DNA of 64,000 nucleotides from Stegostoma tigrinum (taxonomy: Eukaryota): contig NC_081384.1 of the NCBI RefSeq assembly GCF_030684315.1, positions 21,056,818-21,120,817 of the forward strand, written 5' to 3'. Position numbers and translations under genes: made by a program. How positions within the stretch are numbered: the stretch's first letter is position 1; every line of letters starts with the position of its first letter. Of the stretch, positions 284 to 63,786 are shown piece by piece. The notes under the pieces were generated by a model. It was not told where the DNA came from. It searched no databases and saw nothing but the letters and a program-made list of their open reading frames with translations.

Positions 284-511
284 TGAAAACCGAAAAAACT
301 GCAGATGCTGTAAATCAGGAACAAAAGCTGCGGAAAAGCTCAGCAGGTCTGGCAGCATCTGTGAAGGAAAAACAGAGTTAACGTTTTGGGTCTGGTGACT
401 ATTCCTCAGAATAGGCCCCCAGCCGTACTGGATTTGAAATATTAGCTCTGTTTCTCACACCACAGATGCTGCCTCTCCTGCTGAGTTTCTCCAATGTTCT
501 ACGTATTTGTT
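284..511. mobile_element. Penelope-like element terminal fragments (older subfamily), inverted pair
   Basis: GAACTGCAGATGCTG-like ...CTCAGCAGGTCTGGCAGCATCTG...AACGTTTTGGGTC..CCTCAG (284-410), followed by a diverged opposite-orientation copy (~430-511). Confidence 0.6.
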
Positions 512-1074
512 ACTTACCGCTGCTTTCAGCTTTGACCAGGGATTGAAAGCAGTTTACATGGCTCCATCTTCCACCATGTGGAGGGACAAGAGAAGCAGAA
601 CACCAGTACCAGCCAAAGCAAAGCGGCTGGAGATGCTGATACCTTTTCTACAGCCAGAAGTAGCTCCATAGGACATGTGGGATTTCCGAGGCTGTGATAA
701 CACTGTAGTGGGTTTGCAGGCTGAAATCAGGTCTCCAGAGAGGTTTGAGTACCAGTGCCTCAGAAGGCTCACACATTCATGTCAGGTCGTTTGCAGCTTC
801 ATGGAGCAAGATCTCTTTCCCAGTGGAATGGATTGCATTGTCGGTGGTGTACAAGGTGACTGGGGGATCACCATCTCCCTTTATCCCACATTACCCCTGC
901 ACACCAAGTAAACCCAATGGTGCACTCTCTTCCTTACACCTCATTTTCCTCATACTCATTGGCTAAGAAATGGCTGTTCTACTGAGTTCTTATTTATAGC
1001 TTTACTGTGTTTATCTGCGCTGGTATTTTGTGCTCCCTATTGCCACTGGCTACCAAATTTGCAGTATTTAGACG

Positions 1075-6707: not shown

Positions 6708-8235
6708 TGTGCTGAATCTTATGCTCTTTTGGCTAAGTGCTTGCTGCATTGAGATTTTTGGAGAGATTCTCAACTGAAGGCCCAGCATGATTCCTCACCA
6801 TTCCTTACCAAATGAACCTTATTAACCACCTACCTCACCGCTCGCATCCAAATGCAGCCCCATCTTACCACACTCCATTCCCAGAACAATTTCAGCAGGA
6901 AGACTCTGCATCTGTTGTGCCCACTTCATTGGTAAAAGTCAATTATACACCCAGCTAAGCACTGCCGGTGTTGAACTGCCCTGGACAGTTACTGATATGT
7001 ACCCCAGAAATGCTAGACGGGGAGAAACTGACATCCCTCTGTGAATGTGTGTGCCTGGAAGTCCTGCTGGATGGGGTGATGCAGGCGTGGGATGCCTACT
7101 TCCCCTAAAACCAGCTGTGGAGGCCATTGTCTGCCTGTTCCGACACTACACATGGGTCATTGCGATCTCAGCTTCTGGACAAATGCACAGCATCGTAGCA
7201 GGGAGGTCAATGGCCTTCTCTACTCTGCCAAAGTAAGTGCTATCACCTTCTTGCTGATACAACACTTTCTCTCTTCTATTGCACCTATCTCTCACCAAGG
7301 CTAATTGGGGACCATTCTCACTATTTTCTGCAATGTCTTCCCTCATTCATTCTCACATCCACTTCCTCCTCCTTCCCACTCCTCAAAACCACCAACCCTG
7401 TATGCCCTCTGAGCTGTGCCATCACTCATTCAAGATACACTCCCTATTTGCACCAACTGTAACAGCTATGCCATCAAATTTTATGTCCCTTAATGCTTGT
7501 CTTCCTCCTATTCCAGGAGGTAAACAGCCCACAAAGGGACAAACAATATCAGGACAGGTGGTGAGCTGCCTGACATTTGACTGTATCTGAGCCTCTGAAG
7601 TGGTATCGGAGGTTGCACCAGAACTCGCTGTGCATAAGCTATCCCCCTTGACTTGACTGAAGACTGCAAAATACATCATGTTTCCTGGCTTTAAATGTGT
7701 GCTAAATGGTGAGCCAAGACAGAAGTGAAATGAGCCTAGTATATCTAACTGAGTGGGCAAAGTGCAAAATGGTAATTTGATGCAATTCCTGGCAGGGATG
7801 ATCTGAGTATCCAGGTAAGCCCAGAACTGAGTTTCTCAAGCAATTTCTGGTTTTGTTTCAGATTTCCAGCATCTGCAGTTCTTTGTTCTATTTTCATCCA
7901 GAGACGCTGCTTGGATTAGTCCACGAGTGGGGTGTGTGTCCCTGACTGCGTGGTATCTTTGCAGCAGGTTTATAATGAGAGCTGCTGGTGAAGCCCAAGG
8001 TATAGCATTGATGTACAGAAGCATCCTGCAACTGAATCAGAGATGTGCCTTGAGGGTCTTAGAGGCTGGCAGGTTGGATTCCAATATCTGTGGCTAGGGT
8101 ATGTGTAACCTGTGATGTGGAGTGTGCCCTGAAATATTGGTACCTGTATCCAACATTGATGCACTTGGGAAGTGGGCTTGCAACCTGAAATCATCAGATC
8201 CCTGCTTTGCTTTTAATGTGGAGAATTTTCAACCA
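6708..8235 (+). mobile_element. Harbinger/PIF-derived non-autonomous element with Myb/SANT-like remnant
   Basis: 5' end similar to 18040-18170; decayed LEVLLDGV...REVNGLL|GTAAGT exon; interrupted by a PLE fragment at ~7826-7890. Confidence 0.5.
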
Positions 8236-8540: not shown

Positions 8541-8896
8541 TAGAATAATAGAACCTTACAGTGTGGAATCAGGCCATTCAGTCTGTTGAGTCTGCACGAG
8601 AGCTCCAAAGGGCATCCCTACCAGACCGAATACCACTCTATCCCTGTAACCCTGCACAGGCATGGCTAATCCACCTAACCTACACACCCCTGGACATTGT
8701 GGGCAATGTACCATGGCCCATTCCACTTAACCTGCACATCTTTGGACTGGAGGAGTAAACTGGAGTTCCCAGAGGGAACCCATACAGGTGCAGTCAGAAT
8801 GTGCAAATTCTGCAGACTGTCACCCAAGGGGGACTCCAATCCAGATGTCTGGTGCTGTGAGGCAGCAATGCCAACCATTGAACTACCACGCCACCC
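8541..8896 (-). mobile_element. HE1-like V-SINE
   Basis: tRNA head (reverse of GTGCTGTGAGGCAGC..CACGCCACCC), V-domain (CCTAACCT..CACATCTTTGGACT), HER1-like tail. Confidence 0.85.
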
Positions 8897-19270: not shown

Positions 19271-20532
19271 GCACACAAACAGTGTGGCCAACAACAACAT
19301 CCACTTTGGTCTGTCTTCCTATGTTATTATTCCTCATAGCAACTGAACTTATAGGTATACATATCCCACATTACCTTTTCTCATCTCACCTGAGCAAATA
19401 AGATGAAAACAAATCCATATTATTCTGTAGCATCATACCCATCTATCACATTGACACTCATAAATATTGCCCATCCACCTATTCAAAACATTCTGATTTT
19501 ATGCTCATTCAGAGCATGCAGAAATTCCTAATGCCAAAGACAAGAGTCTCTGACTATACTTCAAGTCTCAGAAAAAGTTCGACCTGAAATAATCTTGTTT
19601 CCGGGATTGTTTGAGGGAAGAAAGCACAAGCTGGAGTAAGGCATTAATTGAGTTACACTTTTGACAGTATGATGGTATGCTGCATGACTAAACTATGTTA
19701 GTTGATGATAAACAGATACAGTATGTTCCATCTCATGCCTGATTGTTAATAGGTAAACAGGTGGTAGTATTAACATTTTAGTCACAGAGAGCTTTTCTGG
19801 CTCTGAAAGAAGGAATACAAAAAATACTGGAGATGAAAGGAAGTTATTAAATGAGGCTGAATGGACTGATTTCCTCAATTTGAATGATTCCATCTCTCCC
19901 ATGTAACTTCACTAATCCAACAAGTGAATCTATCAAGCCTTCATGGATTCAGTTTGATACAGAAATCCATCCAGTTACTAGTAATATGGGCAAATGTTAG
20001 TTTTGTTTTTCAATGATCCTATTACAGAATCATGGAATTATTATGGTGAAGAATCAGAACATTTAGCCCATTGTGCCTGCAGCAACTCTATTATCTAGGG
20101 CCAATGTCCTGCTTTTTCCCTTCAGTACACCATTACTATCCAAAAATCCATCCAATGCCCTCTTAAATGCCTCCACCACATTTCCAAATTCTGCATTCCA
20201 CACCCTAAATACTCACTCTCTGAAAAAAATCATTATCTTCATGACCTCCTCTTTCACCATGACTTTGGCAACATTTCCTTCTTTGGTGATGTCAGATGGA
20301 AAGTATTCATTTAATACCAGAATCAAACCTTCAGCCTCCATGTGTCGATCTCTTTTAATTCCCTGACTGGGCTCACTCTTCCTACTTTTTTATTCTTTAT
20401 GTACCTGTGGAAGTCATTTGAATACCCATCATATTAATTGTTGGTCTCTTCTTACACTCTTTCCTTGCTTCTCTTATTTACCTTTCACACATAACATACC
20501 TCAAACTGACATAGAAGAATGTTCATTCTACA

Positions 20533-20702
20533 TAAAAACCAAAAGAACTGTGGGTGCTGTAAATCAAGAACAAAAATAGAAGTTTCAGGTCCGGTGACCA
20601 GTTCTGAGGAAGCGTCACCTGGCTCAAAATGTTAACACTGATTTTTTCTTCATAGATGCTGCCAGATCTGCTGAGCTTTTCCAGCAACTTCTGTTTTTGT
20701 TT
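20533..20702. mobile_element. Penelope-like inverted-terminus insertion (older subfamily)
   Basis: 36-bp tail + inverted ends AACAAAAATAGAAGTT / AACTTCTGTTTTTGTT; decayed hammerhead core CTGAGGA at 20604; flanking ATTCTACA direct repeat. Confidence 0.7.
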
Positions 20703-21884
20703 ATTCTACAGCTCCATTGATTTATGCTTAAAATGTTGATGGTCAATAACTAGTGAAGATAACTTGAAGAGATTCTACTGTAATACATGCAATGAGCATT
20801 CTTTGTGGTTTTCATGGTGGGGGAGAATTGAAACTGACTGTGAGAATCCTCTACCCCTGTTTCATATGTCAGAAGATAAATATGCCACTTTGATATCCAT
20901 TGTTCTTAAATGCAACAATCTCCTTCAGAATACTTTTTTTAAAAAAATTCTTTGAGAATGCTTACTTATCCCTAAGTATATTTATACAGATGCTCTGATC
21001 TGTCTTGTGACTTAGTCAAGAGTCCATCACCTGGATTTTGTTGTTAACAACAAAGTGATGACACCTATTGCTAACCTCAAAGAGTGCGTCTCACAAACAC
21101 TTTGTGATCTCTCTTACATGGAATTTACATTCCTTGTATTAATTTCATTCTTGTGTCAGCTCTAAAAGATTTCTGACCTCTAGTTACAGCGATGTCATCC
21201 AGCCAGCTAAGTAACCACCACACTGAAGAGTTCTCTGAGACAACAGCTAGAAGGTCAGGGGCATGAGTCAACCCTCACTTTTTAATTATCTTACAGAAAA
21301 TCATTAGTAGATTGGGACATACTGTAGGAACTGGATAGAAGCTAAAATATCATAAGATTATAGATGTGGATAAAATAAGAATCTATAATTTTCTCTTCGT
21401 CATTATGATGAAATTTGATATCTCACAAATGAAGTTTACAGGGTCAGAAATAATGGTGAGCAATAATCATAGGTTAGTGCATTGCTAAAACCCAGTTGCA
21501 TCTCATTCCACAATGTGTAATTTCACAGGGTGACAAAAATGAACGTTCTCAACAAATCACTTCCAAGATATTCATCTTAGAAAAGCTAACAGCTTTATGG
21601 AGGTGCAAACAATCACAATTCTTCATTTCATTTCCACAAACTCGGAGATCAGACATCGGTTTCATGAAGCAATGATGTCACATATTTTAGTTGTTGATAT
21701 GACCACAAAATCTGAATCATTGTTCATCTATGAGCCACATATGCATGTTAGCAATGCACTGTTTTGTTGAAAACATCATTGCCAAGCTAAGTAATGCTCC
21801 CCCTTGATTGCTGTACACTAAATGGTGATGTCAACTTGGAAAACCCCCATTGTTAATTTGTTTCTCTCTTTGCTACCTTGGGAT

Positions 21885-21975: not shown

Positions 21976-22054
21976 TGTTGCAGCATTTTGCTATTTATCA
22001 GTGTTCCAAAATGTCCATTAACTATTGCAGCTATGCAAGTATTCCTATATTGCA

Positions 22055-22277
22055 GAGATAATGGGAACTGCAGATGCTGGAGATTCCAAGATAATAAAAT
22101 GTGAGGCTGGATGAACACAGCAGGCCAAGCAGCATCTCAGGAGCACAAAAGCTGACGTTTCGGGCCTAGACCCTTCATCAGAGCCTCTGATGAAGGGTCT
22201 AGGCCCGAAACGTCAGCTTTTGTGCTCCTGAGATGCTGCTTGGCCTGCTGTGTTCATCCAGCCTCACATTTTATTAT
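22055..22277. mobile_element. Young Penelope-like inverted-terminus insertion (palindromic)
   Basis: 36-bp tail 22055-22090; perfect 93-bp inverted arms 22091-22183 / 22185-22277; TSD TATTCCTATATTGCA at 22040-22054 and 22275-22289. Confidence 0.85.
22187..22214 (+). ncRNA. Minimal type I hammerhead ribozyme core (PLE-type); mirror copy on - strand at 22154-22181
   Basis: CUGAUGA-A-GGG(UCUAGG)CCC-GAAA-CGUC: conserved boxes, stem II, palindromic ACGU in place of stem III, GUC cleavage triplet. Confidence 0.65.
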
Positions 22278-23419
22278 TCCTATATTGCAATTCTATTTGC
22301 CCAAATAAATCAAAATACATTTGATTTTACAGTTGAATTAGGCTTTCTAATACAAATTATTACGCCTTAACTTTAATAAAAGTCACTGCATATTGATCGA
22401 TATGCAACTGTTACACGATTTGAATAAAACATTGATTTTCAAATTCTTCAAGCATCATTCCCCCAGGACTGCTATGACTGAGAATTACTAAATAAAGAAC
22501 CAAGATCACAAGCCCATGAAATAGCAATATATGAAACATAAGCTTATGTATTATACCACTGAACTGGCCAATCAACCATTTTGATGAAAGAATAAAGATG
22601 CAGGTGATCTAGATGAGTATTTTCAGCATTTTATGTTTCTGAAATATTATCAATCCAGTATGTTGAGGTGCCATTTCAAAATATATATCATGTATACTGC
22701 TGTTGGGCACTTGAACTAATCATCCAATGATTTGTGAAATAGGTATTATAATTTTGTTCACAAAAGCAATGATAAATGCCAATTATAATTTCTAGAAAGC
22801 GGGAAGATGGTATTTGCATTATAATTGTAGTCAACCTTTCTAAAGTGTTATAGTTCATCACAACAGGTGAAAATAACAGTAGTTTCTAACATACAGAAAG
22901 TCAACTCTTAAGTGCCAATTTAGTTAAAGTTGCTGTACATTTGGGTTAAGAAATTCAAACCGTGCACTGATGAGACTGCAGCAACTAATTCCTCATTTGA
23001 ATGACCTGGGACCTCATTTCTAACAAGCCAGAAAGAAGACACCAACTTACGGGTGAATTAGGCCATTTCTGCATTACAGTCACAATTAGCCTGATGAGGT
23101 AAAAGCCAAGAGGAAACGGTGGCATTATAGGTGTGGAGGATATGCTTTCTTCACACTATACATCGTTCATAACAATTCAAATTTGACATTCCATAAAGTG
23201 CAGTAAAGATCAGCTTCTTTCAATACACTACATGAGCTACTTCACCACACTTGCTGTCACAGACTATATTTACAAAAACAAACATTTGCAGTTGCCAAGG
23301 GGTTCTACAAATTGATCTTTTGGTTTTTAAAGACAGTGTAGGTCCTGTCAGCAATACTGGAGTATTAGATGATTGTTTAGTGCTTAACAAAAGTCTGTTG
23401 GTATAGTATGGTATACTAG

Positions 23420-27242: not shown

Positions 27243-27331
27243 AGATAATAAAGTGTGGAGCTGGATGAACACAGCAGGCCAAGCAGCATCTCAGGGGCAC
27301 AAAAGCTGACGTTTCGGGCCTAGACCCTTCA
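27243..27331 (-). mobile_element. Young PLE terminal fragment
   Basis: Near-identical to the 22089-22178 arm; truncated at CCCTTCAT inside the hammerhead CUGAUGA box. Confidence 0.8.
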
Positions 27332-29558
27332 TGGCTTTTGTGCTGGTTGACAAGTCTGATGCAGTGCTGTGACTGTCACCAGGGGTAGGGAGAGAGGTAG
27401 GTCTGGCAGGAATGGGGATTTAAAACTACAGTTGGCATAAATCTGAACCATGGAAACAGACATGTGGAGACTGTTTAAGGAGCAGCTTTTGCGAATGATG
27501 TATAAATTGTTCCTCTGAGACAGGTAAGAAGGGGTAAGATTAAGGAGCCTTGGATGACGGGAACAGAGGTGCTTCTCGTCAAAAAGAAAAAGGCAGCTTA
27601 CGTAAGGTGGAGGAAGCAAGGGTCTAGCACAGCTTTAGAGGATTACAGGCTTGCTCGGAAGGAGCTCAAAAGTGGACTGAGGAGGGTCAGGAGGGGGCAC
27701 GATAAAGGCCTGGCAGGAAGGATCAGGGAGAGCCCAAAAGCATTTTACTCCTACGTGAGGTATAAGAGAATGATCAGGGAGAAGGTAGGGGCGATCAGGG
27801 ATAGCATAGCGAACTTGTGCATGGAGTCTGAGCAGATAGGGGAAGCCCTAAATGAGTTTTTTGGTTTAGTTTTCACTAAGGAAAGGGATCTTGTTGTGAA
27901 TGAGAACTTTGAGGAGCAGGAAAACAGGCTTGAACAGATCAAGATTGAGGAAGTTGATGTGCTGGAGATTTTGGCAAACATTAAGATTGATAAGTCCCCA
28001 GGGCCAGACCAGATTTATCCTAGGTTGCTCCGGGAAGCGAGAAAGGAGGTTGCTAAGCCGCTGGCAAAGATCTTTGCTTCCTCACTGTCCACAGGAGTCA
28101 TACCGGAAGATTGGAGGGAGGCAAATGTTGTTCCTCTTTTCAAGAAAGGGAATAGGGAAATCCCTGGAAATTACAGATTAGTCAGTCTTACGTCTGTGGT
28201 CAGCAAGGTTTTGGAAAGAATTCTGAGGGATAAGATTTATGGCTATTAGGAAAAGCATAGCGTGATTAAAGGGAGTCAGCATGGCTTTGTGAGGGGCAGG
28301 TCATGCCTTACAAATCTTATTGAGTTCTTTGAGGAAGTCACGAGACAGGTTGATGAGGGTCGTGCAATGGATGTGGTGTACATGGACTTCAGCAAGGCAT
28401 TTGATAAGGTTCCCCACGGCAGGCTCATTCATAAAGTCGGGAGGTATGGGATACAGGGTGACTTGGCTGTCTGGATTCAGAATTGGTTGGCTGACAGGAG
28501 GCAGAGAGTGGTTGTAGATGGTAAGTATTCTGCCTGGAGGTCAGTGCTGAGTGGTGTCCCGCAGGGCTCTATTCTTGAGCCTCTGCTCTTTGTAGTTTTT
28601 ATAAATGACTTGGATGAGGAGGTTGAGGGGTGAGTTAGTATATTTGCTGATGACACAAAGGTTGGAGGTGCCATTGATAGTATCGAGGGCTATTGCAGGC
28701 TTCAGCGAGACATTGACAGAATGCAGAGCTGGGCTGAGAAATGGCAAATGGAGTTCAACCTGAATAAATGCAAGGTGATGCATTTTGGAAGGTCGAACTT
28801 AAATGCTGAATATAGGATTAAAGGCAGGATTCTCAGCAGTGTGGAGGAACAACGGGATCTTGGTGTTCAAGTGCATATCTCCCTCAAAGTTGCCACCCAA
28901 GTGAATAAGGTTGTTAAGAAAGCATATGGTGTTTTGGCTTTCATTAACAGGGGGATCAAGTTTAAGAGCCGCGAGGTTATGCTGCAGCTCTACAAAACCC
29001 TGGTGAGACCACACTTGGAATATGGTGTTCAGTTCTGGTTGCCCTATTATAGGAAAGATGTGGAGGCTTTGGAGAGGGTGCAAAGGAGGTTTACCAGGAT
29101 GCTGCCTGGAGTGGAGGGCTTGTCTTACGAGGAGAGGTTGACTGAGCTCGGACTTTTCTCTCTGGAGAGAAGGAGGAAGAGAGGTGACCTGATCAAGATG
29201 TACAAGGTAATGAGAGGCATGGATAGAGTCGATAGCCAGAGACTTTTCCCCAGGGCAGGATTGACTGCCATGAGGGGTCATAGTTTTAAGGTGTTAGGAG
29301 GAAGGTATAGAGGAGGCATCAGAGGGAGGTTCTTCACCCAGACAGTTGTGAGCGCATGGAATACTTTGCAAGTGGTAGTCATGGAAGCAGAGTCATTAGT
29401 GACATTTAAGCGACTGCTGGGCATGCACATGGACAGCAGTGAATTGAGGGGAGTGTAGGTTAGGTTATTTTATTTTTGGATTAGGATTATTCCACAGCAC
29501 AACATCGTGGGCCGAAGGGCCTGTACTGTGCTGTACTTTCCTATGTTCTATGTTCTAT
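27332..29558 (+). mobile_element. CR1-clade LINE (HER1-like), 5'-truncated, young; RT pseudogene
   Basis: ORFs 27554-28249, 28262-28633 and 28721-29458 share one frame broken by TAG and TGA; motifs [38 protein letters not shown]; 3'UTR GGGCCGAAGGGCCTGT and (CTATGTT)n tail. Confidence 0.95.
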
Positions 29559-30526: not shown

Positions 30527-31597
30527 ACCCTATCCCAAAATCAGGAGGCCTGATGAACTGTCGCATGTCAAATGATGTTTTCACTTATGTTTCTTTCAAA
30601 GTTCGAACTAAGAGTTCATCAAAGGTTTTCAGTTGCACAGACAAATTGTGTGAGCTTTCCCTATCTGTTAATGTTCAAACGCTTCAGTAAAGTGTCTTTC
30701 ATCATTGAATAAACATGTCAACTTTAAAGAAGTGCTTCCTGAGGCCACAAATCAATTTTCACATAGTTTTAATTGTTTTACCTTAATTTGATTGTTGTAA
30801 GCCTTTGTGTTGTAGCTCACTTTGCAATGAAAATGTCATCACATTATAGGTAGGCTTTGCTTCCTTGTACACCTCCTGCACAATGGCCATTTCTTGATGA
30901 TGCCTGTATATTCCAGCTGGATTGACTTCGATTGTGTTGCACAGATTCATGAATAAATATACATTTATGGTTGAAATTGAGTTTATCTCCTTATCTGTCA
31001 CAATACCAAAGATATATTTCTGCTAGTCTTGCTGGGCTTTCCCAGCAGCATTCAAGCTTTTTTTAAAAATTAAATACCATTATTAAAATCAAAACGTTCT
31101 CCCCTGGTTATTTTATTCATGAAGTGATACATCTAAAGGATAATATCAATTAATACTCAAATATTTTCTATTCCTTTCTTTTTATATGTGAATAGATAAA
31201 TAATCTACATTGCTTCATTATATATAAAAATAACAATTTCCTGGTTCCAAATTTGAAATGAGGAACTTCATGAAAAAGTTTTCCCATTCTTTCCAGAGGA
31301 AAACCCAAGATTAGGCAATTGTTCCTTGACTATCTTTAGTAAGTAGTCTCAAAACCATCCTCTCAGGTAAGTCCACTCTTCTTCTCTGAGATCAAAAATG
31401 AATGCAATGCCCAGATGTGAGGTTCGATCCCTTCTTGCCATCACCTCATTCATGCCCCATTTAAGCTTTGAGCTACATTGTCATTGCAAAACTCCTTTAT
31501 TTGTTTGAATTCCGTCTGTCATAGCATGGCCATTAACACACAGTTTACCCACATTCTATTGGATTATCACTTGTTGGTGATATCAATCGCATTTCAA

Positions 31598-31899
31598 AAT
31601 AATAGAACCCCCTACAGCGTAGAAACAGGCCTTTCAGCCCTAACAAGTCCACATCAACCCTCGGAGCTTCCTGCCCCAACACATTCGCCTAGTCTACAAC
31701 CAGCTAAACACTACGGGCAATTTAGCATGACTAATCCACCTACTGCACATCTTTGGACGTTGGGAGGAAACCAGAGCACCCAGAGGAAACCCACATAGAC
31801 ACGGGGAGAATATGCAAACTCCACACAGACCCGAGGGTGGAATTGAATCCAGGTCCTTGGTGCTGTGAGGTAGTACTGCGAACCACTGTGCGACTGTGT
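31598..31899 (-). mobile_element. HE1-like V-SINE
   Basis: GGGAGGAAACCAGAGCACCCAGAGGAAACCCAC..GGGAGAAT.TGCAAACTCCACACAGAC; tRNA head at right end. Confidence 0.88.
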
Positions 31900-35630: not shown

Positions 35631-35925
35631 GAATCACAGAATCCCTACGGTGTGAAAGCAGGTCGTTTGACCCACCCAATCCATGCATTTCCCATGGCTA
35701 CACCACCTAACTTGCACATCCCAAGACACTATGGGCAACTTAACATGGCCAATCCACCTAATCTACACACTTTCGGGCTGTGGGAGGAAACCAGAGCAGC
35801 CAGCAGAATCCCATGCAGACAGGAGGAGAATGTGCAAATTCCACATGGACAATTATATGTGTTAGGAATTAAATGCCCTGGCACTCCGAGACAGCAGGGC
35901 TAACCACTGAGCCACTGTACCACCA
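35631..35925 (-). mobile_element. HE1-like V-SINE
   Basis: GGCCAATCCACCTAA..CTGTGGGAGGAAACCAGAGCA..TGTGCAAATTCCAC; head CTAACCACTGAGCCAC. Confidence 0.85.
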
Positions 35926-41159: not shown

Positions 41160-42600
41160 CACAGAATCAAAGAGTTATTTCGGAGCAGAAGGAGGCCATT
41201 CAGCCATCGTGTCTGCATCAATACTCTGTGCATTTTTTTTCTTTGTGCCATTCTCTTGCTTCTTATGTGTAGCCCGGAACATTGGATGATTATTTAAATG
41301 GAAAATGTTCTCTTGAATGCCTCAATTCAATCTGCCTCCACCACACTTCCGGTCGTGCATTCCATATGCTAACCACTCACTGTGTGAAAAGGTTTTTCCC
41401 ACTTCACATTTGTTTTTCTTGCAAAACACTTTAAAACTGTATCCTCTGGTTTTTGATCCATTTAACAGTGGGAAGCAGTTTCTCCTTACCCATTCTCTCT
41501 ATATCACTCACAATTTTGAAAGCTTCTATCAACTCTCCACTTAGTCTTCTCTCCAAGGAAAACAGTCCCCACTTCTCCAAGCTTTTCGCTTGGCATATCC
41601 ATAGAATTATATTCATAAACCTCTTCTGCACTGTCTCCAATGCATTCATACCCTTCCTCTGCTGTGGAACACAGAAATGCACATAATACTCCAGCTGACC
41701 TCTCACCAGAGTCTCTTGTCAGTTCATCATAACCCTACTGACCAACTAGACCCCCTGCCCTTGGTTCTCTATGCCCCTATTCACAAAACCCACAACAGTA
41801 TATGCTTAATCTGTACCTACCCTGCCACCTTCAATAACTGATGTACATATAAACCCAGATAATAAAATGTGAGGCTGGATGAACACAGCAGGCCAAGCAG
41901 CATCTCAGGAGCACAAAAGCTCATATACAAGAGCACATATAAACCCAGATCTTTATGCTCCTGTATAACATTTAGAACAGTACCCTTTTTTCTGCATTTT
42001 TTTTACCAGAGTGTATTACTTCACACTTCTCCACATTGAGCTTATCCTGATATCAATCCACCCACTCCTCCAATATTAGTGTTGTTTTGGAATTCTACAA
42101 TGTCCTCCTCACAGTTTACGATTCTACCAAATTTTGTGTCGTCTGCAAATGTTGAAATTACCCCTGTACACAAGATCTAAATCCTTTGTATATCAGAAAA
42201 AGAGAAACTCCCAGCACTGACCCCTGGGGAACTCCACTACAAAACTTCTTCCAGCCTGAAAAGTACCCACAATTAGTCTTTCTCCCCTATCTCCCAGACA
42301 ATGTTGCGTCCATTTTGCTACTGTTCCTTTTATTCCATAACCTATAAATGTAGTCACAAGGCTTTCGTGCGGCATGGTATCCAATGCCCTTTAAAAGTCC
42401 ACGTGCACCACATTAATACTGCGCCTATTACCTCTTCAAAAATCTTCAGCTAGTTCGAATCAATTTTCCTTGAACGAGCGCATGATGACTCTTCCCAAAT
42501 AACTCAGTTTTGTTCCACGTGTCTATTAATTTGATGCCGAATAATTGCTACTAGAAGTCTTTCTCCCCACCACCGAAGTTAACCTGACTGGTCTAAATCA
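41160..42600 (-). mobile_element. CR1 LINE 3' fragment (decayed), interrupted by a PLE fragment
   Basis: Minus ORF LEYYVHFCVPQQRKGMNALETVQKRF..LEKWGLFSLERRLSGELIEAFKI; FADDTK remnant near 42130-42148. Confidence 0.85.
41861..41934 (-). mobile_element. Young PLE micro-insertion with 16-bp TSD
   Basis: 41861-41921 is identical to 22093-22153; ACATATAAACCCAGAT duplicated at 41845-41860 and 41935-41950. Confidence 0.85.

Positions 42601-45836: not shown

Positions 45837-63786
<17,950 letters not shown>

Follow-up and report, generated by a model that had tools for sequence, protein, structure and literature searches.

[quoted passage not shown] In Pen2a and Pen2 of Adineta vaga and in Penelope of Drosophila virilis, the pLTRs stand head to head and form a palindrome at their junction (PMC3846280, PMC2377424, PMC8557442). 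The tail has been given as 31 bp in PMC3846280 and as 30–40 bp in PMC8557442, which reads it as a product of nuclease resolution; a 34-bp repeat is described in PMC2377424. In published A. vaga cases the TSDs measure 8–10 bp. The protein of Poseidon from Anolis carolinensis (PAc) cuts both strands in vitro and extends them, with reverse transcription starting at two internal sites separated by the length of the tail; a dimer model has been proposed for it (PMC11167929). According to the same source, its start sites lie 111–118 nt into an ORF that itself begins in stem II of the ribozyme. Minimal hammerheads of metazoan PLEs are mostly solo copies, and pairs on opposite strands, 100–700 bp apart, are also on record (PMC4209133). 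Both the origin of PLE inverted repeats and tails and the cutting of hammerheads in vivo are called open in PMC8557442 and PMC11167929.

A sequence-only reading of 64,000 nucleotides of Stegostoma tigrinum DNA (the window) had pointed to two mismatch-free 93-bp arms around a 1-nt spacer, bracketed by a 15-bp TSD and centred 2 nt outside a CUGAUGA box. We found all of this as described: the arms are 100% complementary, the direct repeat is exact over its 15 nt, and the hammerhead C3 positions fall on either side of the centre (table 1). The insert proper spans 22055–22274 (220 bp). The last 3 nt of the right arm (22275–22277) double as the first 3 nt of the right TSD, leaving 90 bp of that arm as certainly element-derived, and the last 2 nt of the left TSD (22053–22054) also match the family continuation at 55120–55121, so that the two target junctions show microhomology of 3 nt and 2 nt. 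The 36-bp one-sided tail of the earlier reading is present, although its exact length depends on the junction convention and ranges from 34 to 41 bp over the possible assignments. A search of the window for inverted repeats (at least 20 nt, within 1.5 kb) gave three pairs, and the only perfect one is this palindrome (22091–22277), whose RNA fold has a z of -28.5, equalled by 0 of 200 shuffles. Among 3000 random pairs of zones 235 nt apart, two had an exact 15-nt match; both are the element itself, and the next best match is 13 nt. The target DNA of the insertion is 71% AT, against 61% in the window.

Table 1. Features of the palindromic element and related copies (positions in the window).
Positions	Strand	Feature	Basis
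22040–22054	+	Left TSD copy, 15 bp; last 2 nt are microhomology with the outer end of the element	Repeat match
22055–22090	-	36-bp tail, one side only; putative gap between outer and inner reverse-transcription start sites	Matches 55122–55157; meaning of tail from PMC11167929
22091–22183	-	Left arm, a pLTR segment whose element sense is the minus strand	Self-complementarity, family match
22152–22183	-	Minimal type I hammerhead with C3 at 22181 and a predicted cut after 22154; bulged base, helix II of 4 bp, helix III a palindromic stub	Descriptor search
22184	.	Single spacer base, C	Fits neither continuation found in two longer copies
22185–22277	+	Right arm, second pLTR segment, head to head, ends at inner start site	22275–22277 common with TSD
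22185–22216	+	Second minimal hammerhead: C3 22187, predicted cut after 22214, helix I 2 bp	Descriptor search
22275–22289	+	Right TSD copy, 15 bp	Repeat match
27243–27344	-	Arm from inner site into ribozyme core plus 11-nt inverted stub; followed by a presumably CR1-like LINE	BLAST
41845–41950	-	Single-arm insertion, 16-bp TSD, from inner site to exactly the predicted ribozyme cut	BLAST, TSD search
54859–55294	-	Partial tandem in direct orientation (period about 306), within a collagen intron and antisense to that gene	BLAST
285–513	.	Older family: tail, arm ending 2 nt beyond ribozyme core (411), then diverged inverted arm	Profile, alignment
20520–20710	.	Older family: inverted insertion of the same layout, 13-bp TSD (1 mismatch), 36-bp tail 20533–20568	TSD search, alignment
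46949–47085	.	Older family: arm ending 2 nt beyond core (47055), then short possible inverted stub near cut site	Stub weak, score 22

The element shares with the A. vaga and D. virilis PLEs the head-to-head pLTRs, the one-sided tail of 30–40 bp, the outer TSD and the junction palindrome. It differs from them in its small size, in having neither an ORF nor a third pLTR, in a TSD longer than in the A. vaga cases, and in a perfect centre with a 1-nt spacer just outside the ribozyme core. It is the known PLE layout in an unusually clean, unmutated example, stripped to its junctions. The resemblance to PAc extends to the two start sites and the tail, the extension of both strands, the AT-rich target and the upstream hammerhead (PMC11167929). 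Where the PAc ORF begins in stem II, the ATG at that spot in the right arm opens a frame of only 14 codons, and the candidate ORF start of the window family lies 40 nt beyond the tail.

We are confident that 22040–22289 is a PLE-derived insertion. Its PLE membership rests on non-coding features, because no PLE ORF was found: a hammerhead in the terminal repeat, a one-sided tail of 30–40 bp, both inverted (22 kb) and direct partial tandem (54859–55294) arrangements, and TSDs of variable length in AT-rich DNA. A descriptor for minimal hammerheads, with criteria taken from PMC4209133, gave 4 matches in the 64 kb against 0.23 expected, and all four lie inside the element family, in both palindrome arms and both tandem units. 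As in the metazoan PLE hammerheads of that paper, the motifs have the CUGANGA and GAAA boxes, an NUH cut site, a bulge after A9, G10.1–C11.1 and a palindromic helix III stub at 15.2–16.2, for which we computed a self-duplex of 4 bp and -3.1 kcal/mol. They depart from the published pairs in lying 6 nt apart and being base-paired to each other, and in their short helices I (2 bp) and II (4 bp). Helix I has 2 bp in three of the four motifs, compared with a criterion of about 4–5 bp for metazoan PLE minimal hammerheads; a 2-bp helix I is on record for D. virilis (PMC4209133). In the fourth motif, on the minus strand, the junction extends helix I from 2 to 8 bp, three of these being G-U. We set aside the idea that this is a repaired ribozyme, since the full hairpin abolishes helix II: in our fold computations the pairing probability of helix II dropped from 0.64 in a single arm to 0 in the whole palindrome. 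A transcript of the palindrome would, on these folds, be a plain 90-bp duplex with the ribozymes sequestered in the hairpin. The cruciform or dsRNA that had been envisaged for the palindrome is, by the same computations, physically possible. Rfam returned no match at gathering score anywhere in the window, hammerheads included; near the element it gave 15 sub-threshold matches to generic hairpins, the best scoring 30 of 100 bits.

The coding partner was sought in several ways. None of the 132 window frames of at least 72 aa carries a PLE-type reverse transcriptase or GIY-YIG domain in Pfam, which reported only LINE reverse transcriptase, VWC, collagen and one weak unrelated match. The 14 frames that overlap the 220-bp element are 20–57 aa long, none longer, and so fall short of an autonomous PLE. 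Homologue searches with three translated frames, including the one from the ATG at 55082, gave no match. A full protein search against 1.84 billion representatives returned a single match, the whale-shark gene model g23578.t1 (E 1.7e-4, 63% over 30 aa), in keeping with a shark host. Read as degenerate antisense, the residues beside the match agree in all 9 of 9 positions with a Cys/Tyr pattern that we take to be that of PLE GIY-YIG nucleases and that was picked after the protein had been seen; the best of 5000 shuffles reached 7. The model looks like a mis-predicted protein in which a pLTR copy is nested antisense in a GIY-YIG-like frame; we treat the match as a lead only, which would indicate nesting rather than linkage of the pLTR to a GIY-YIG frame. 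This supports the earlier description of a PLE integration product that has no ORF but carries an inverted pLTR, a tail and a TSD. Because nothing 3′ of the tail is present in the element and the hairpin sequesters its ribozymes, further movement is unlikely and the element is probably now an inert scar. On balance, we favour a non-autonomous, probably dead-on-arrival insertion that was made in trans by an endonuclease-bearing PLE via two-ended priming.

BLAST revealed three further young insertions in the window that are related to the palindrome element. In the 41.9-kb copy, all 65 nt of 41857–41921 agree with the left arm. Between its ribozyme-cut end and its right TSD lies a 13-nt filler (41922–41934). 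Seven of its first 8 nt agree with the target site, which recalls the templated insertions of end-joining repair. In the 27.3-kb copy, the inverted stub starts 1 nt after the predicted ribozyme cut. Both units of the 54.9-kb tandem stop 45–46 nt upstream of C3, a common stop suggestive of template jumping at one fixed 5′ end of the RNA. The tandem continues past the tail into further element sequence; an ATG in this part (55082, 40 nt from the tail) may be the PLE ORF start. Both units also have a pyrimidine tract and an AG about 24 nt upstream of C3, a possible 3′ splice site. An older sister family has the tail core and the arm in common with the young one. Its copy at 20520–20710 has the layout of the palindrome, although the left arm (20569–20599) is partly deleted; the right arm (about 20600–20701) shares 4 nt with the TSD. 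Both TSD-flanked inverted copies in the window, which belong to two diverged families, have a tail of 36 bp, and this supports the earlier expectation of a non-random tail length. Short old fragments of the sister family at 7827–7885 and 31006–31054 end before the ribozyme. A profile built from eight family stretches gave 21 matches at E ≤10, 11 of them below 1e-3 and 8 of these being seeds, while the reversed window gave 3 matches with a best E of 4.7. TSDs were found at three of seven loci (15, 16 and 13 bp; 65–71% AT against 61% in the window), and the search had no convincing result at the 27.3-kb, tandem, 0.3-kb and 46.9-kb loci. We claim no nick-site consensus, as the ATT preferred by the anole enzyme follows only one of six inferred nicks. 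The 24-nt core had no match among the bacterial and archaeal genomes, plasmids and phages searched.

The ends of these copies cluster around the ribozyme. Relative to C3, the seven ends of the young family lie at -2, -2, +3, +28, +29, -45 and -46, where +28 is the first base after the predicted cut; five of the seven are inside the ribozyme module and two at -45/-46. Against a uniform null the clustering gave P values of 0.009 and 0.018, which are post hoc and concern non-independent ends. Among the older copies, the stop is at about -2 in two arms, and a third arm has its start at about -4 to -6; this is where the reference arm runs out, so these positions carry some 4 nt of uncertainty. Another two inverted pieces start within the module, and one left arm, being deleted, could not be scored. 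No single stop is common to all ends (-2, -45 or cut site), and two older fragments (7.8 kb and 31 kb) finish before the ribozyme, which counts against the favoured route. The simplest reading of the clustering, and a pattern to test, is run-off at a few RNA 5′ ends. The stops would then mark RNA 5′ ends 2 nt before the core, about 45 nt before it and at the cut, and the end at the cut would be genomic evidence of a minimal PLE hammerhead cleaving in the germ line. Two copies bear indirectly on cleavage of the predicted ribozyme, the one that ends at the predicted cut and the one with its inverted stub 1 nt past it. In contrast, the anole RNA-seq showed no RNA ends at the ribozyme cut (PMC11167929). 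An AG lies at 20600–20601 (within 20598–20604) in the older family, just before the -2 position where two other old arms stop. By analogy with D. virilis, in which an intron end abuts helix I of the hammerhead (PMC4209133), the old arms that stop at -2 could be copies of a spliced RNA. The young family has no AG at its -2 stop, which led us to reject a 3′ splice site there.

Provided that the insertion is PLE-derived, we consider it fairly probable that it arose by two-ended priming. A staggered cut of 15 nt would open the target, and both 3′ ends would prime reverse transcription, the top strand at the outer tail site and the bottom strand at the inner site, with the element sequence antisense to the RNA. 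Both cDNAs would stop at the same base, 2 nt beyond the ribozyme core, and would be joined head to head with one extra base to give the observed product. The spacer base at 22184 appears to be either non-templated or a subfamily variant. An extra C on a cDNA is the expected trace of copying a 5′ cap, and the spacer C possibly has this source. The position of the right-arm end falls within 0–2 nt of the target junction in both cleanly alignable single-arm copies (41857 and 27243), and the third copy, the first tandem unit at 54859, starts about 10 nt further in. Priming of the second arm at the target predicts that the right arm should end at the inner site of the single-arm copies. Against two-ended priming stands the fact that rival routes give nearly the same final sequence and that only one intact centre is readable. 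In addition, the junctions of window copies show 2–4 nt of microhomology, whereas the start sites in PAc are not homologous to the cut DNA (PMC11167929).

The earlier reading had left the choice between fold-back and second-strand priming. Of these, the use of a second target strand fits better. In fold-back, the cDNA from the outer site would have snapped back, copied itself and been captured on the second target end by the 3-nt microhomology or by nuclease trimming. Self-priming is the published reading of PLE junction palindromes (PMC3846280); a single RNA would suffice, and the complete identity of the arms would be accounted for at once. It may also occur in this family, as no more than 2 edits separate the arm/stub junction of the 27.3-kb copy from the product of a snap-back at 4 self-complementary nt. 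In our DNA folds, however, cDNA ends at 22181, 22183 or 22184 were unpaired and the 1-nt loop at the palindrome centre cannot close. With no stem at the cDNA end, fold-back therefore needs about 3 untemplated bases to build one, and it leaves the end of the second arm at the inner start site unexplained, in two families, unless a nuclease trims there. We regard fold-back as unlikely for the palindrome. Somewhat less likely still is a master copy, that is, a palindrome copied from an inverted-pLTR 5′ end through read-through RNA, or a small mobile hairpin family. In D. virilis, the most frequent layout has inverted pLTRs beside the 5′ pLTR (PMC8557442, PMC2377424), and a master would explain the fixed centre, the fixed tail and a spacer base missing from other copies; the 8-bp helix I on the minus strand also suits it. 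Yet the other inverted junctions in the window differ, the reverse transcriptase would have to unwind a 93-bp hairpin with sequestered ribozymes, and the element is missing the sequence 3′ of the tail that the anole protein requires (PMC11167929). Two separate events, whether insertion of another copy within or next to the first one or later recombination or gene conversion, seem very unlikely: a single TSD brackets the whole unit with none at the centre, and the layout recurs at 20520–20710, even though PLEs can target their own sequence (PMC11167929), a nested copy is apparently present in the whale-shark gene model and conversion would hold the arms identical.

We find it scarcely credible that the element is a miniature inverted-repeat DNA transposon (MITE) or a host hairpin-RNA gene. 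A long inverted repeat with a TSD, and the generic Rfam hairpin matches, would suit these, but the ends are asymmetric (36-bp offset on one side), the TSDs vary (13, 15 and 16 bp), a hammerhead core is present, the relatives are single-arm and direct-tandem, and no Rfam match reached gathering score. Nor is the palindrome an assembly or library artefact. Perfect palindromes are a known artefact class, but a fold-back chimera would invert the flank too, whereas here unique DNA resumes after the direct 15-bp repeat. The ends at family-defined sites, these direct unique flanks and the decayed arm in the old copy of the same layout rule out a fold-back artefact for practical purposes. In LINE-1 twin priming, both target ends prime cDNA, which yields an inversion inside one TSD. 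The window element would be alike in having both ends primed within one TSD (the term is used in bioRxiv 10.1101/2024.12.14.628481). We rejected a LINE-1-type product, as there is no poly(A) and the two arms cover the same template stretch instead of adjacent, non-overlapping ones, which points to two templates. Metazoan non-LTR retrozymes are likewise short, non-coding, hammerhead-bearing and likely moved by PLE proteins, and the 306-nt tandem at 54.9–55.3 kb is within their size range (PMC7229834). The palindrome itself was not assigned to them: its units are inverted rather than head-to-tail repeats of 170–400 nt, its ribozyme is minimal rather than canonical and without an Rfam hammerhead match, and it has a tail and a TSD.

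The insertion had been called very recent, which is unproven. With 0 differences in 105 paired sites, divergence is at most 2.8% (95%), or about 2e7 generations at the epaulette-shark rate of 7e-10 per site per generation (PMC10587355). Homogenisation can also keep arms alike. Once the 65 nt in common with the 41.9-kb copy are counted as well, the bound falls to 1.25e7 generations. The element is young next to its neighbours, the tandem units agreeing with each other at 115 of 128 positions, rather than demonstrably recent.

The window contains several other features. Pfam placed VWC and triple-helix exons of a fibrillar collagen gene, presumably collagen I-like, at 47564–62010; the distance from the palindrome to the VWC exon downstream of it is about 25 kb. 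Pfam also identified a LINE reverse transcriptase at 28.2–29.5 kb, part of a 5′-truncated LINE (27345–29540) that we take to be CR1-like, with two stop codons in the reverse transcriptase region; it follows directly after the 27.3-kb inverted stub. An imperfect 31-nt inverted repeat (74%, 223 nt apart) at 21476–21760, 300 bp left of the element, is possibly a decayed small DNA transposon. Another dispersed repeat, with copies 73–79% alike at 8661–8880, 31708–31888, 35686–35845 and 61211–61371, is probably a SINE.

In the literature searched, with most subscription papers and Repbase/Dfam outside its scope, we found no account of shark pLTR palindromes or of two-ended priming as their cause; the element family is likely already catalogued in Repbase/Dfam. 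No host function is indicated for the 22040–22289 copy. PLE-derived elements of this kind can be mislabelled as MITEs or microRNA hairpins. If transcribed, the element could feed small-RNA silencing of its family, a role that inverted copies of Penelope play in flies (PMC3681739). More tentatively, such palindromes might record directly in the genome how a PLE dimer primes from two ends on two templates, the short elements being, instead of random 5′ truncations, complete run-off copies of the RNA leader that precedes the internal start site, whose stops map RNA 5′ ends, with the ribozyme cutting in the germ line; we hold this whole picture as a doubtful but testable one. A genome-wide count of junctions in the lineage could choose between two-ended priming, fold-back and master copying. 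At a density of four young insertions in 64 kb, a shark genome may contain copies in sufficient number to decide how the inverted repeats of PLEs arise.
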